A stretch of 64,000 nt of DNA from an uncultured Methanosarcinales archaeon. Lineage in GTDB: Archaea > Nanobdellota > Nanobdellia > Woesearchaeales > GW2011-AR9. The stretch lies in NCBI GenBank assembly GCA_964604645.1, contig CAZRZP010000002.1, forward strand, positions 141,739-205,738, given 5' to 3'. This document shows positions 21,001 to 33,000 of this stretch, in pieces. Position numbers: made by a program. Numbering within the stretch: position 1 is the first letter of the stretch; each line of letters opens with the position of its first letter.

Positions 21001-24000
21001 ATTTATTTTGATAATTATTTGCAATCCTAATTTCTTGAATACATTTTCAGCCAAGAAAATAAGTTCAGCTTCTGCAACCATTGAATTTGTTCCAATGATA
21101 TCAGCGTCAAATTGCCAGAATTCTCTAGTTCTTCCTAATTTAATTGGTCCGTCTCTATAAACTCTTCCGACTTGATATCGTTTAAACGGAAGTTTGAGGG
21201 TTGGGTTAGTAGATACGTATCTTGCTAGTGGGACAGTCAAATCAAAACGTAATCCTAGCTTTCTTTTTCCTTGATCTGTTAATTTAAATACTTCTTTCAT
21301 TACATCACTTCCCTGTCCGGCTCCACCTTTAGCGGCAAGAGTTTCAAACCTTTCAATTAGAGGTGTTTCTAAAGGAGAAAAACCATATGATTCACATTTT
21401 TTTCTAATATCTTCAACAACTTTGTTCTTTAGAATTTTTTCTTCAGGAGGAATATCTTTCACTCCACGTGCAGTTTGAAGTTTCATATTATGGGATTTAT
21501 TTGATGATTTATATAGTTTTATGATTTTTTTGTATGAGCAAGCTTATGAATCACAACTTTTTAAAATGAAATTGAAGAATTATATGTATGATTTCAGTTG
21601 ATTCAATTGAATTGTACAATTCTCCTAAAATAATTTCTCTTGATAAAGCAAAAAAAGTTATAGCAGATTTAAAGAAAGAGAGTAAAAATGTTGGTCTTTG
21701 CCATGGGGGTTTTGATTTAGTTCATCCTGGTCATATCAAACATTTTGAGGTTGCAAAGAATTTGTGTGACAGTTTAGTTGTTTCATTAACTGCAGATAAG
21801 TTTGTTATGAAGAGAAAAGGAGAGGGACGACCAATTTATTCTGAAGAATTGCGTTCATATACTATAGCTTCATTACATTGTGTAGATTATGTGGTAATAA
21901 CTGATTTTGCTAAAGGGGTTGAGGTAATTGGTGAGCTGAAACCAAGTTATTATATTAAAGGTCCAGACTACATAAATAAATCAACACCCGGAATTACTGC
22001 TGAAAGAGCAGCGATAAAAGAAGTTGGCGGTGAGATGAAGTATACTACCGAGCCTCCAATGTCAACTACTAAAATAATTGATTACGTTCAAAATTTACCC
22101 AGGAGTGAATTGTTGTTGATTATTGATCGCGATGGAACTTTGATAGAGAATAACGATTTTCTGGGTAGAAATGATGATTGGCGAGAAGAATTGAGGTTAA
22201 AATCTTCTGTTGTAAGTTTTATTTCTACTTTGCAAACTAAATACAAAACGACTAAAATGGTTGTTACAAATCAAGCTGGTGTTGCAAGAGGTTATTTTGA
22301 TTGCAGTATGGTTGAAGAGATTAATGGTGTGGTTAATGATCAATTAGTTTCAAAAGGTATTAAGATTGATAATTGGCAGTATTGTCCCGATGTGGATTCT
22401 GTGTATGCTAATTTAAAGAAAGACGAAATTGAATTTGATGTTAATTTCATAAAAGGAGAAACTAGGCGCAAACCTGATACTTCTATGGTTATTGATGCAT
22501 TGAATGAAATTGGTAAAAAAATCGAGAATTTTAATAGGATCTTGGTATTAGGTGATAGGCATGAAGATAAAGAATTGGCTACTAATTTGAAAGCTAAATT
22601 TGTTGATGTTAATGGGAAGAGTTATGAGGATTTAGTGGAAGATTTTTGATAGAGTAACAAATGTAGATTAAGTTATGTCTTTTTTTCTTTCCAGCTGATA
22701 CATTGTACTGGACAAGAATCAATTGCATCCTGGACTTCTTGTTCTATTGGAACTTGATCTACAGAATCATCTGGTGTACTTTTGTAGTCTAAATCAAATT
22801 CTTCATCTTGCTTCACGGTGAAAACTGATGGACAGGTTTCAGTACAAACAGTACAACCAATGCATGTTTCTTTATCAACAAATGCTTTTTTGACCATTAA
22901 ACTAACGCCTCTTGAGTATTTGCTGCAAAACGTCGATACATTTTTTTAAGATTGGCACGCTGAATCATACGGCCAATACCGCTAGGAGTGTTTACATATA
23001 CATTAAGGCAATTCTGAATGTGGTTTTTTTGCTCATCAGTGTGAAAAAATTTAAATGAGTACTTACCTTGTGGTTCTAGCATTCTTGCGTCAATCCTATA
23101 TTCCAATTGTTCGATCTCTTGAAAATTATATGAAAAAGGATGAGCGATTTCTTCTTCATATTGGTGAATACGTTTTTTCTTACAAATTACAAATTGAATT
23201 AATTCCTCAAAATATTTTTCTACATTTGAATTGATTATACTTTTATCTGTTAAATACGTTTTTATGGAATTAAGCAATACATTGGCAATATCATCTAATT
23301 CAAGATATAAATCAGCACGATGAACTAATAATTCATTTATTCCTAAATCACCAGAAATGTACCTGTTTATGACATCTTCACTAAGAACAAAATTTTCTGC
23401 TTCTTGAAGTGAAGGATAAAGGTCATCTTTAGTTGCTGAAATGAATTTGTCTACAATATTTTTCATTTTCTCTGTATACAGTTCTGGATGACCGTGAATT
23501 TGAAGAAGGATGTCAAATGCTGGAACTTCCATTGCTTCCAAAGCTGAAAAAACTTCTAAGAAAAGCGAGTTATTAAAATAAGTTTCAATAAATAGATTCA
23601 TAACTCTACAGGAAATGTAATCCTCAAAAGACATATTCCTACTACCGACAATAATTTCTTCAAATTCCACGATTGGGTGCTTTTTTCCATTAAATTCGTA
23701 CATACCAACACCCCCTGGAATTACTCTAAAGCGAGTTAAAAATTGATACTCTTCTCGCATTTTATCGGATGCCATTGCAGTTCCAATAAGAAGCATTGCT
23801 TGGTACATTCGCAGAGTTTTAGCACCACTTTCAATACCATATTTTAAGGATTTGAAATGGGAAAGTCTAGAATCTCCTGGTAAAGCTAAGATTATCTCAG
23901 TAAATGTTGATGCTTCTTTTGAAAGACTATTCCCATATTCTAAGAATCCGCGATATGCATCCAGTGAAATGTTGTTTCTTTTTATATTTTTTAAAACGTC

Positions 24001-30000: not shown

Positions 30001-33000
30001 AATAACCATTACTTTGAGGTTTTTCATGGAGTTAATGATGTTCTGAATTTGAGAAAAAGTATATTTCTCTTTTATTTTTTTGATGTATTTTTCTTTTTCC
30101 ATACTATCTCGACTTTTGATTTCTTACACGGTTGTGTCTTTTAAATATAATGTAACTGTATTATATCAAAAATATGTTCAATCATTTTTATTTATTATCA
30201 TGATTCAATATTTGCCGCTCTGTTTGAAAAAAAATAATTGTTGATTTTTTCCCAATTTTGTAAAACTTGAACGTCGCTTATTTGTTTATTTTCACCACTC
30301 GAATTGAAGAGAATTTTTTTGACAGAAGTGGGAAAAGACGATGCGTTAAACACTTCTTCTAAATCATCAATAAAATGTGTACATTGCAGAATGTTGATGT
30401 GTTTATTTTTTTCGTCTAAAGTTGATCCAAAAAACACCTGTTCTTTAGATAATTTATTAGTGAAGATGTTTTTTTCCATCCACAGCAGCGCTGCTTCTCG
30501 TAAATTAGTGCCGCCCTGAAGTAAATTAGAATAGATTGTCTTATGGCTTATTACATAAATTGTAATGTTATTATCATGACATTTCCGAAGAAATTGATTA
30601 AATCCTGCAAAAATTTTTGCTTCTTGAATTCTAGGCCCATAAATCTGTGCTTGAATTTCTTGCCAGAAAATCTCACCTCCAGGAATAGTTCTGATATGGT
30701 CTCTAATCTTTTTCTTGTTTTTAGGAAAACCTTCGGGTATGAGTTTTTTCTCTAAGGCTATCAGGTGAATTAAATCATCATAACCAATAATGGTATTATC
30801 AAAATCAATCCCAATAATTAGTTGCATCGTTGTATATTTGTATGTTTTTTTTTAAAATTTGTTAACTTACTCTTTATTTGTTCTTGGTCATATTCTTTTC
30901 TCTTCCATAACTGTTATAAAGAGAATATTTGGCTATTATCTTGGATGTGGTGACCATTTTTGTGCACTTGGGTTCAATTATTTTTTCAGCATAATACCTC
31001 GCACAAAAAGTTTGTGGCAATGAAAGCAGCTATTTTAGTTAAGCAAAGAGAACCTCTTATTGTAGGTGATGTGAAATTACCTACAGATTTAGAATATGGG
31101 CAGGTATTTGTTAAAGTTGTTTATAGTGGAATATGTGGCAGTCAATTGGGTGAAATTGATGGTATTAAAGGAGAAGATGCCTACCTGCCGCATTTACTTG
31201 GTCATGAGGGGAGTGGAATTGTTGAGAAAATAGGTAAAGGTGTAACTACAGTTAAAGTTGGAGATCATGTTGTATTACATTGGAAACCAGGTAAAGGGGT
31301 AGAAGCAGCAACACCTCAATATATTTGGAATGGCAATCCAGTTAATGCTGGAAGAATAACTACTTTTAATGAATATGCCGTTGTCTCAGAAAATAGAGTA
31401 ACAGCAATTCCTACAGGTATTGACTTGAAAACAGCACCGTTATTTGGTTGCGCAATTCCGACCGCTTTTGGTGTAATTCATAATGATGCTAATCTTAAAG
31501 TTGGTGAATCTATTGTGGTGTTTGGTTGTGGCGGTGTAGGAATAGCTATTATACTTGCAGCTTCTTTGTCTTCAGCTTACCCAATTATTGCTGTAGATAT
31601 CAATGATTCTAAATTGGAACATGCAAAGAAATTTGGTGCCACCCATTTGATCAATTCTTCTAAAATGGGTGTTGATGTAGCAAGAGAAATTAATTCAATA
31701 TTACCTCAAGGGGGAGATGTTGTTGTAGATAATACAGGTATTACTTCTGTTAGAGAACAGGCGTATGAATTAACCAGTAATAAAGGTAGAACGATTTTTG
31801 TTGGAGTTCCTAAACTTGGTGAGAAAATTAGTATTGATTCTTTTCCATTACATTTTACTAAACGAATCACTGGTTCACATGGTGGAGATGCCAAACCAGA
31901 TTATGATATACCTAGGCTGATTCGATTACAAAATTATGGAGCTTTTAGTTTAGAAGAAATGATCTCTCATACTTATTCTTTAGATAAAATAAACGAGGCA
32001 ATTGCAATGGTACGAAGCGGATCGGCAATTCGTTGTGTAATTAAGATGGAAAATGTGGGGCAAACTTATAATGAACATATGTGAAATCTGCGGGGGAGAA
32101 GTACAAAAAAAGTTAGATTTCGGTCCTCAGCCGATATGCAACCGTTTTCTAAAAAATGTTGAGGAAAAAGAGTTTACGCACCCTTTAAGTATCGGTTCTT
32201 GTTCAAACTGTGGTTTGGTTCAACTAACAGAATATCCTCCGGCGACAGAGATGCAATCTCCTTATAGTTGGGTTCATTACATCGAACCTGAAAAGCATTT
32301 AGATGAAATTGCTGAAAAAATATCTGTTCTTTTAAAAGATAATCCTAATGCAAGAATATGTGGTGTAAGTTATAAAGATGATTCTCTTTTAGAGAGACTT
32401 CAGAAAAAAGGCTTTCAGGTGTATAGGTTACAACCACAGGATTTAGGTTTGAATGAATCTCAAACTGGAATAGAATTGGTCCAGAAAGCTTTCAATCTGG
32501 AACAGGCACGGCATATTGAATTTTTACATGGAAAATTTGATATTGTCATCGCGCGGCACATTTTGGAGCATACGCACCATTCCCTTGAATTTTTTAAAGC
32601 AATAAAGAATCTCACAAAAATTGATGGTTTAGCGTTATTTGAAGTTCCGGATAATACTAGGAATTTTGTTAATTTGGATTATTCTTGTATTTGGGAAGAA
32701 CATCTATTGTACTTTACTCCAGAAACTTTACAACAAGGTTTAATTGCACAGAATTTTAAGTTACATTCATTCTATGATTTTCCATATACCTTAGAAAATT
32801 GTTTAGTTACTTTAGTAAAACCCCATCATGAATCTTCAGAACAAAAGATTGACCTTTCAGAGACAATTAATTCGGCAAATCTTTTTTTTGATAGTTTTGA
32901 TGAAAGAAAAAAACAAATACAAAGTAACTTGTCTCTTCTCAATGAGCGGGGAAATATTGTTGTATTTGGAGCAGGCCATACTGCTAGTTTACTTATCAAT

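Follow-up and report, generated by a model that had tools for sequence, protein, structure and literature searches.

NDP (nucleoside diphosphate)-heptoses are building blocks of the cell envelope and ligands of the vertebrate innate-immune sensor ALPK1, and the enzymes that make them have only recently been recognised outside bacteria. The locus described here raises the question of whether an archaeon could carry the whole route, from sedoheptulose-7-phosphate (S7P) to an NDP-heptose, in two fusion genes. These lie at 21588-22649 and 28444-30102 of the window, the 64-kb stretch of DNA analysed (64,000 nucleotides; positions 141,739 to 205,738 of contig CAZRZP010000002.1, assembly GCA_964604645.1). 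An initial annotation had read them as all four activities of the ADP-heptose route, present as two fusions that differ from the bacterial HldE arrangement, and this is borne out by profile (hidden Markov model), PDB sequence and fold matches. The two proteins probably encode all four steps of NDP-heptose synthesis, with the product fed to a conserved set of tailoring enzymes for surface glycans.

The window is AT-rich (~32% G+C). The nearest named homologues of its genes occur in metagenome-assembled genomes (MAGs) of Candidatus Woesearchaeota, Nanoarchaeota and Nanoarchaeia, so the host is a DPANN archaeon. Coordinates are positions within the window unless they are given for a named locus, and L and P numbers denote compared loci and compared proteins, respectively. 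Domains were called by Pfam and NCBIfam profile searches, PDB sequence searches, and Foldseek comparison of AlphaFold models with the PDB. The models of the two fusion proteins were built with 16-17 homologues, across which the invariance of motifs was also judged (16 for the SIS domain).

Domain identities of the two fusion proteins

Both open reading frames (ORFs) were found exactly where the initial annotation had placed them. The first (28444-30102, minus strand) encodes a protein of 552 amino acids (aa) with a PfkB kinase at its N-terminus (aa 23-326; nt 29125-30036) and a SIS domain at its C-terminus (aa 341-529; nt 28516-29082), assigned from profile, PDB and fold matches as an HldA/HldE-type heptose-7-phosphate kinase joined to a GmhA-like S7P isomerase. 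The best model for the kinase half is rfaE_dom_I (TIGR02198; 9.4e-37), at ~127 bits versus 34 for the next kinase family; PfkB also matches. HldA was the only match in the PDB sequence search (4e84, 1.2e-11) and the best in the Foldseek search (4e8w/4e84, 9.4e-22 to 2.3e-21; template-modelling score for the target, TMt, 0.83 for 4e84), four orders of magnitude ahead of the next fold family, pseudouridine kinase (1.9e-17). The GAGD anion hole with its catalytic Asp (G285-A-G-D288) is invariant. The SIS half matches gmhA best (TIGR00441; 3.6e-30), as well as SIS itself, and hits a dozen GmhA structures in the PDB (5by2, 9.6e-21; E. coli 2i22). It has the phosphate loops GNGGS and SGSGNS and, in our own reading of the alignment, keeps H61 and H180 of the E. 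coli enzyme as H399 and H520. These two residues, together with D403, E511 and also E508, are invariant in the homologues, and H399/D403/E511/H520 plausibly form an acid/base or metal tetrad that differs from that of the E. coli enzyme. The model of the whole protein has a predicted local distance difference test (pLDDT) value of 85.5 and a predicted template-modelling score (pTM) of 0.73.

The second ORF (21588-22649, plus strand) encodes a 353-aa protein, assigned on the same kinds of match as an HldC-like heptose-1-phosphate nucleotidyltransferase (NT; aa 25-168, nt 21660-22091) and, C-terminal to it, a GmhB-like HAD-IIIA phosphatase (aa 176-344, nt 22113-22619). For the NT half, rfaE_dom_II is the best model (TIGR02199; 1.8e-32), 74 bits above the next family, glycerol-3-phosphate cytidylyltransferase (38 bits), and Pfam CTP_transf_like also matches. 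The best PDB sequence match is Burkholderia HldC (5x9q, 8e-13), the second human phosphoethanolamine cytidylyltransferase (9.6e-11), and the best Foldseek match again HldC (5xf2, TMt 0.81). Neither the HxGH motif (HGGFDLVHPGH) nor the terminal STT varies among the homologues. The HAD half matches HAD-IIIA, histidinol-phosphatase domain (4.9e-21) and GmhB (PRK08942, 5.7e-16) models, and exceeds the cut-off for TIGR01662 HAD-IIIA (53.7 bits over 44.6). Its PDB sequence matches are GmhB-like (2o2x, 4pnh, 3l8h, 2gmw), and E. coli GmhB (2gmw/3l8e) is the best fold match. The HAD catalytic motifs are present (DRDGT, TNQAGVARG, RRKP, GDRHED), with D180, D182, T184, N228, Q229, K295 and D327 invariant. 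The protein is modelled with a pLDDT of 87 and a pTM of 0.58; the linker between the halves (~12 residues, 160-171) is of low confidence and disordered, so that no fixed geometry can be claimed between NT and HAD domains.

Taken together, the top NCBIfam model, PDB sequence match and fold match are heptose-pathway enzymes for all four halves, and for the kinase, isomerase and NT halves the next unrelated families lie 60-90 bits lower. The case that the halves belong to unrelated families, which had been raised along with the initial annotation, thus came out negative. The pair also differs from the bifunctional HldE (PRK11316): the kinase is joined to the SIS domain and the NT to the HAD domain, in genes that are 5.8 kb apart and on opposite strands.

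Several observations weigh against so direct an assignment. All four halves fall below the curated equivalog cut-offs, the kinase with 126.8 bits for 345 (equivalog-domain), the SIS half with 105.1 for 209.45, the NT half with 112.1 for 181.5 (equivalog-domain) and the HAD half with 58.6 for 178 on PRK08942. The SIS of a Bacteroidales GDP-heptose operon scores much the same on TIGR00441 (105.8 bits). The archaeal kinase is only ~20% identical to the canonical HldE kinase, and in the isomerase E65 and Q172 (E. coli numbering; same alignment) are replaced by D403 and E511. The NT reads TEPPMSTT against the consensus (F/L)xxGxSTT (motif as defined in PMC11461863), lacking F/L1, Gly4 and Arg5; across the NT-HAD homologues the residues before STT are [TND][ED]Px[MLF], again with no Arg5. 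For the HAD half, GmhB (58.6 bits) and HisB-N (53.6 bits) score nearly level and cannot be separated by sequence alone, which is why the GmhB assignment draws on the fusion and the gene context.

This half moreover has no zinc cap (CxH...CxC), the defining trait of both GmhB and HisB-N (PMC9798254, from which the motif definition is taken). It reads YCPDVD...ETRRKP where the GmhB of E. coli and Burkholderia have CxH...CxC-RKP: C266 alone is kept, the His is D268, and both Cys before RKP are gone (E-T-R instead), just as the initial annotation had it from the CPDVD sequence. The cap spacer is ~23 residues versus 12 in E. coli GmhB, and the segment that replaces the cap is modelled with pLDDT >90. 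The closest solved relative, 2o2x of M. loti, is likewise without CxC. Finally, neither a GT9 heptosyltransferase nor a clear HldD epimerase was found when these were sought in the 64-kb window. The four domains would best be described as divergent relatives rather than certified equivalogs, and we infer their substrates from these similarities.

Distribution and origin of the fusions

Both fusions are conserved across many Woesearchaeota/Nanoarchaeota assemblies, and so are not accidents of assembly. Among the 120 best homologue clusters of the 552-aa protein, 67 show the kinase-SIS fusion, the remainder being free kinases of ~347 aa from the same phylum, while the NT-HAD fusion is full-length in all 120 best clusters of the 353-aa protein (54-67% identity); at 50% identity these NT-HAD fusions collapse to about six to eight clusters. 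True kinase-SIS fusions among GTDB species representatives are confined to DPANN MAGs (L007-L014), two of them labelled Methanosarcinales, and a metagenome scan added only five further close fusions. Full-length bacterial matches to the kinase-SIS protein (L033, L064, L074, L085) proved to be adjacent genes, and of the full-length bacterial matches to NT-HAD (25-28% identity) the one inspected (L099) was an HldE followed by a separate HAD gene.

The four activities share more than ten independent loci in varying states of fusion. Both fusions occur together in the window and in L005, L009, L012, L014 and L093; in L010 the kinase-SIS is fused with NT and HAD separate, and in L087, L090, L091 and L171 the NT-HAD is fused with kinase and SIS separate. 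The SIS domain is fused or adjacent to an HldA-like kinase in all archaeal loci examined. Where the two are separate ORFs their order is kinase then SIS, with an overlap of 4-32 nt, so that one frameshift, or the loss of one stop codon, would suffice to join them. Most likely the fusions have arisen by read-through between adjacent overlapping genes, and more than once.

In distance trees (without bootstraps) the kinases make up a single archaeal clade, with fused and free forms interleaved, while the SIS domains fall into two lineages. One comprises the window-type fused SIS domains, which share 65-75% identity among themselves and group with bacterial free GmhA-like proteins (52-58%). Their identity to the SIS of unfused Woesearchaeota and of P0065-type fusions is no more than 35-39%. 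Given the interleaved kinases and the two SIS lineages, the simplest reading is probably repeated fusion or swapping of SIS domains. The closest free SIS relatives (52-58%) are encoded in GDP-heptose operons of bacteria, along with HddA and a fusion of HddC with GmhB (L016), which supports S7P isomerase activity for the SIS domain.

This Bacteroidales operon for GDP-D-glycero-alpha-D-manno-heptose, whose SIS is 57% identical to that of the window, likewise has its NT step fused to GmhB (L016 7124-9031; a 635-aa protein of HddC-type NT, GmhB and a uridine-kinase-like domain, followed by HddA, the GmhA-like SIS and a glycosyltransferase of family GT2). In contrast to the window, its NT has the non-homologous NTP_transferase (HddC) fold, its kinase is of GHMP type, and the route leads to the alpha anomer with GDP activation. 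It is an independent joining of NT and phosphatase in the GDP-heptose route.

Other genes around the heptose loci of the window are also fused: an NTP_transferase with a PMM-like HAD (489 aa; 13337-14806, plus strand), a short-chain dehydrogenase/reductase (SDR) with a C-methyltransferase (721 aa; 33876-36041, plus strand), and two DegT aminotransferases in 790 aa (38938-41310, minus strand). This glycosylation island seems prone to gene fusion in general, beyond the heptose genes.

The B12 radical SAM gene and the recurring neighbourhood

Adjoining the NT-HAD gene is a pair of genes on the minus strand, for a class-B (B12-binding) radical S-adenosylmethionine (SAM) enzyme of 680 aa (22897-24939), KedN5-like by NCBIfam, and a small ferredoxin of 74 aa (22673-22897; from the gene call and the Fer4_13/Fer4_15 matches in L001). 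The start of the second overlaps the stop of the first by 1 nt. The radical SAM enzyme falls narrowly under the Pfam cut-offs (B12-binding 31.1 versus 32.1, Radical_SAM 28.8 versus 29.5), and matches the KedN5 model (NF033712) at 2.8e-43 with 148 bits versus a cut-off of 700. Its electrons probably come from the ferredoxin, which has the motifs CIGCTVC...CP and, at its C-terminus, CPVQC.

The initial annotation correctly placed this pair, along with a carbamoyltransferase module, between the two fusions, but took it to be merely bracketed by them; relatives fused to the kinase or the NT tie it to the pathway. In L091 a single ORF of 1046 aa comprises B12-binding, radical SAM and heptose kinase domains; a second assembly (L088) represents the same lineage. 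In P0402 the radical SAM enzyme (882 aa, 63% identical to that of the window) is fused to the NT domain, with HAD, SIS and kinase genes following. A third arrangement is found on the 1.14-Mb contig of L173, where the genes run NT-kinase (in the reverse order seen in bacterial loci), SIS, radical SAM (51% identity), SDR, DegT, DegT, E1 alpha, E1 beta, GT2. On the strength of these fusions and this operon, the enzyme is proposed to act on a heptose-pathway intermediate or on the NDP-heptose itself. The reaction could be a C-methylation or a rearrangement, the sequence being compatible with either. The literature search turned up no report linking a B12 radical SAM enzyme to heptose.

In fosfomycin biosynthesis, a nucleotide conjugate made by the cytidylyltransferase (CyTase) Fom1 is C-methylated by the class-B radical SAM enzyme Fom3. 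This serves as a mechanistic precedent only: the substrate is a phosphonate rather than a sugar, and there is no sequence-level orthology with the window. The Fom1 CyTase domain (5x3d) is among the fold matches of the 353-aa protein.

A 51% identical radical SAM gene is found at 8001-10112 of L172 (ENA ERZ28563803; its cluster is named Omnitrophica by NCBI), neighboured by C-methyltransferase types as in the window, an SDR, DegT, an SGNH protein and an ABC exporter. The 8 kb to each side of it are free of heptose genes, so the tie to heptose is not universal. A small P-loop kinase of AAA_33 type recurs by the SIS, radical SAM and NT-HAD genes in five related loci (L005 13229-13849; L088 6480-6953; L089 9095-9628; L090 9202-9756 and 10528-11136; L091 11135-11719); none was identified in the window.

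The remaining genes between and beyond the fusions recur in part with them. The carbamoyltransferase module noted above begins with an 84-aa ORF (25182-25436, plus strand) of no family match, kept next to the carbamoyltransferase in L003 and L004 (43% identity). Then follow a NodU/CmcH-type O-carbamoyltransferase (25464-27209, plus strand; Carbam_trans_N 7.8e-84, Carbam_trans_C 1.7e-72), the second copy in the window, and a 321-aa protein (27238-28203, minus strand) with weak SGNH/GDSL-esterase similarity (NCBIfam LA_2486 SGNH only, 4.6e-05). In L003, L004, L007 and L013 the second carbamoyltransferase and its 321-aa partner again adjoin the kinase-isomerase gene, a hint that the glycan which would carry the heptose is also O-carbamoylated. 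The first copy (16336-18096) belongs to a paralogous module (16336-19283, plus strand, compared with 25182-28203 for the second); the SGNH-like partners are of 388 and 321 aa, and the small ORFs are a 51-aa DUF5989 ORF in the first module and the 84-aa ORF in the second.

The kinase-isomerase gene is directly preceded by orf209 (30198-30827, minus strand), a 209-aa HAD-IB (MtnX-like) protein by a weak NCBIfam MtnX match (3.8e-06). It is followed on the plus strand by a Zn-dependent medium-chain alcohol dehydrogenase (30960-32084, the gene call starting from 31020; ADH_N, ADH_zinc_N), homologues of which (42-72%) adjoin kinase/SIS genes in L003, L005, L007, L012, L090, L091 and L093. Two genes of sugar C-methyltransferase type come next (32053-36041, plus strand), with Pfam matches to Methyltransf_13/23/14 and DUF6016 in 608 aa and to SDR and Methyltransf_13/14 in 721 aa. 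L010, L088 and L091 have both of them together with radical SAM and heptose genes, L172 with the radical SAM gene alone.

The split transketolase (36038-38946, plus strand) consists of an N-half joined to an APH-like kinase (659 aa; 36038-38017) and a pyrimidine-binding/C-terminal half of 310 aa. The PDB sequence searches gave no significant match for the APH-like domain, the 209-aa or the 321-aa protein. The same APH-TK_N fusion is found in L010; in L005 an APH domain is fused to an orf209-like HAD-IB (566 aa; 2043-3743), and in L012 orf209, APH, TK_N and TK_C are contiguous (2840-5378). Heptose genes have a transketolase pair in their vicinity in L005, L010, L012, L091 and L093 and in the bacterial L064 and L098. 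In L089 and L173 the neighbourhood that the transketolase occupies in the window contains an E1-type thiamine enzyme, whose stop in L089 overlaps the NT-HAD start. This fits tailoring by C2 transfer better than supply of S7P.

The initial annotation had placed a transketolase ~6 kb away, which holds (it is 5.9 kb from the kinase-isomerase gene, and split), and saw in it the source of S7P, which is possible but only one of several readings. The HAD/APH-kinase/transketolase module could supply S7P, form a second sugar-1-phosphate route, or salvage 5-deoxyribose, a radical SAM by-product; in Synechococcus a transketolase and a HAD phosphatase turn the radical SAM by-product 5-deoxyadenosine into 7-deoxysedoheptulose (PMC8102628).

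On the minus strand beyond it (38938-43347) are the double DegT aminotransferase of 790 aa, a 4,6-dehydratase-like SDR (334 aa) and a second SDR (326 aa), called by Pfam and NCBIfam. This block directly abuts the kinase-isomerase gene in L008 and L010 (67-75% identity) and stands beside radical SAM and heptose genes in L171 and L173. Overall, heptose genes, radical SAM, SDR, DegT aminotransferases and a thiamine enzyme form a recurring set in archaea and bacteria.

The surrounding island holds an AglB/STT3 oligosaccharyltransferase (45995-48913, minus strand; STT3 4.4e-44), five GT2 and two GT4 glycosyltransferases, and other nucleotide-sugar genes (NTP_transferase+PMM, UDP-glucose dehydrogenase, dehydratases). 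Counted over the window, the glycosyltransferases of families GT2 and GT4 number eight. The DUF2304-GT2-AglB arrangement of the window is found 6 kb from the NT-HAD gene in L089. AglB is a candidate consumer of the final glycan, and use in N-glycans is plausible. At the left end of the island are a SPASM-domain radical SAM enzyme (5301-6254, plus strand), an AMP-binding (acyl-adenylate-forming) enzyme (636-2096, plus strand) and a TylF-like O-methyltransferase (6277-6798, minus strand), which may provide further glycan tailoring.

Although DPANN organisms are usually described as metabolically reduced, a pair of ATP-citrate lyase-like subunits (48975-51953, minus strand; Citrate_bind and ATP-grasp, CoA-ligase and citrate synthase C-domain) stands beside AglB. 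The sole find of the tRNA and Rfam scans of the window was an isolated 5S rRNA gene (13128-13243, minus strand; 68.5 bits) between nucleotide-sugar genes, with no 16S or 23S in the 64 kb. A promoter/terminator scan of 19.5-32.2 kb gave counts not above those of shuffles, with a sigma-70 model that is inapplicable to archaea.

The proposed pathway, its rivals and known heptose routes

In the proposed pathway, the SIS domain of the 552-aa protein would convert S7P to heptose-7-phosphate (step 1), and its PfkB kinase would phosphorylate C1 to give the beta-1,7-bisphosphate (step 2). The HAD-IIIA domain of the 353-aa protein would then take off the 7-phosphate (step 3), and its cytidylyltransferase-fold domain would join the heptose-1-phosphate to a nucleoside triphosphate (step 4), each polypeptide thereby handling consecutive steps (1 and 2; 3 and 4). 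A beta product would be expected, PfkB-type heptose kinases and cytidylyltransferase-fold NTs (HldE/HldA/HldC) being those of the beta-anomer route. The nucleotide is probably ATP, as a default guess, since the NT lacks the Arg that belongs to the STTR5 promiscuity motif. The modified heptose would then come from a tailoring set of radical SAM enzyme and ferredoxin, SDRs, DegT, C-methyltransferases, the thiamine-dependent enzyme and possibly the carbamoyltransferases.

A bolder version, which we regard as tentative and rather less likely to hold than not, would make the fusions the front end of a cassette conserved in DPANN archaea and several uncultivated bacterial lineages. The radical SAM enzyme would C-methylate or rearrange the heptose-phosphate or NDP-heptose, the SDR, DegT, C-methyltransferase and thiamine enzymes would act after it, and the cell surface would display branched, higher-carbon amino sugars that constitute a new class.

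Of the competing explanations, the one that fares best is that the substrate is another ketose phosphate, either octulose-8-phosphate made by the transketolase of the cluster or a ketoheptose C-methylated by the radical SAM enzyme, leading to an NDP-octose or a branched NDP-sugar. Such a use of the same machinery has a parallel in the lincosamide route, where homologues of GmhA, HddA, GmhB and HddC (LmbN/P/K/O) make GDP-octose. The divergence of all four domains, each under its equivalog cut-off, would suit this, as would the substituted E65 and Q172 of the isomerase active site, the radical SAM fusions to kinase or NT in relatives, and the recurrence of a transketolase or E1 pair in the cassette in both archaea and bacteria. 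However, the nearest free SIS relatives sit in ordinary GDP-heptose operons, there is no sequence sign of a larger substrate pocket, and the transketolase is absent from L009, L014 and L087 despite the presence of the four activities. We consider another ketose unlikely.

Less likely still is a plain ADP-heptose end product made for one glycosyltransferase, with the radical SAM enzyme, carbamoyltransferase, transketolase and DegT belonging to unrelated sugar pathways in a crowded island. The island does hold other nucleotide-sugar routes (NTP_transferase+PMM, UDP-glucose dehydrogenase, dehydratases), the radical SAM gene of L172 keeps company with C-methyltransferases and DegT and no heptose genes within 8 kb each side, and the carbamoyltransferase is missing from many heptose loci. 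Yet single ORFs exist that unite the radical SAM enzyme with the kinase or with the NT, and the gene set recurs in distant archaea and bacteria with differing gene orders.

Very improbable, in spite of the second-ranked human phosphoethanolamine cytidylyltransferase match (9.6e-11 versus 8.2e-13 for HldC), the close HisB-N scores and an STT motif resembling the RTEGISTT of TagD-type enzymes, is that the 353-aa protein joins a CDP-alcohol/CDP-glycerol-type cytidylyltransferase (TagD/ECT-like) to a generic sugar- or histidinol-phosphate phosphatase and the 552-aa protein a generic sugar kinase to a phosphosugar isomerase, given the bit scores (rfaE_dom_II 112 versus 38 for glycerol-3-phosphate cytidylyltransferase, rfaE_dom_I 127 versus 34), the lead of HldA in the fold search by four orders of magnitude and the co-localisation of the four activities in more than ten independent loci with varying fusion states.

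On the heptose pathway as proposed, the window shares its four chemistries and folds with the bacterial ADP-L-glycero-beta-D-manno-heptose pathway (E. coli GmhA, HldE and GmhB; Burkholderia HldA and HldC). It differs in its wiring, as kinase-isomerase and NT-phosphatase rather than the kinase-NT of bacterial HldE (steps 2 and 4), in a phosphatase without the zinc cap, and in having no HldD or GT9 nearby.

The closest non-archaeal relatives of the window NT (40-50%) and kinase (31-34%) are NT-kinase proteins of ~505 aa (L033 Pelagibacteraceae, L064, L097, L098, L173), in which the NT is N-terminal and the PfkB C-terminal, the reverse of E. coli HldE, with SIS and phosphatase as separate genes. 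Their loci share SIS, radical SAM, SDR, DegT and transketolase/E1 neighbours with the window. As these closest relatives live in the same type of cassette, the window enzymes form a distinct branch of heptose-type enzymes, associated with heavy tailoring and, in the loci compared, with no lipopolysaccharide genes. The reverse-order proteins (L033 80-1600, L064 3202-4725, L173 5738-7270 and P0278-P0390) come from Pelagibacteraceae and other uncultivated bacteria, and their genes often have a split transketolase, DegT and a member of the same radical SAM family as neighbours. No characterisation of them was found in the literature.

The initial claim of novelty holds only in part, since the pathway itself is known, archaea are known to have it, and heptose has already been described from an archaeal N-glycan. 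The N-glycan of Thermoplasma acidophilum includes heptose (PMC11407970), and, as two commentaries on Tang et al. (Science 2024) relate it (PMC11461863, PMC11573728), archaea including M. maripaludis have functional NDP-heptose enzymes, in which an Arg as fifth residue of the NT xxGxSTT motif gives CTP/UTP promiscuity. The same commentaries describe three NT architectures (NT alone, kinase/NT and isomerase/kinase/NT), and neither NT+phosphatase nor kinase+isomerase without NT is among those they list; searches of the literature for ADP-heptose in DPANN, GmhA in M. maripaludis and archaeal isomerase-kinase fusions likewise found nothing relevant. The fusion topology thus appears uncharacterised, and what is new here comprises the two fusion architectures, the zinc-less GmhB-like domain and the conserved association with a B12 radical SAM enzyme.

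For the biology of these organisms, the locus shows the pathway to be present in a large group of uncultivated DPANN archaea, with consecutive steps paired on each polypeptide. The family searches with which such genomes are annotated currently leave all four domains under their naming cut-offs. The paired-step fusions lend themselves to the study of substrate channelling and of the ways in which fusions form and re-form, and the locus offers three cloneable targets: the two fusions, and the B12 radical SAM enzyme with its ferredoxin. If the more tentative cassette proposal is true, a radical enzyme that edits the heptose skeleton would mean a new type of sugar for the surface glycans of archaea and bacteria.

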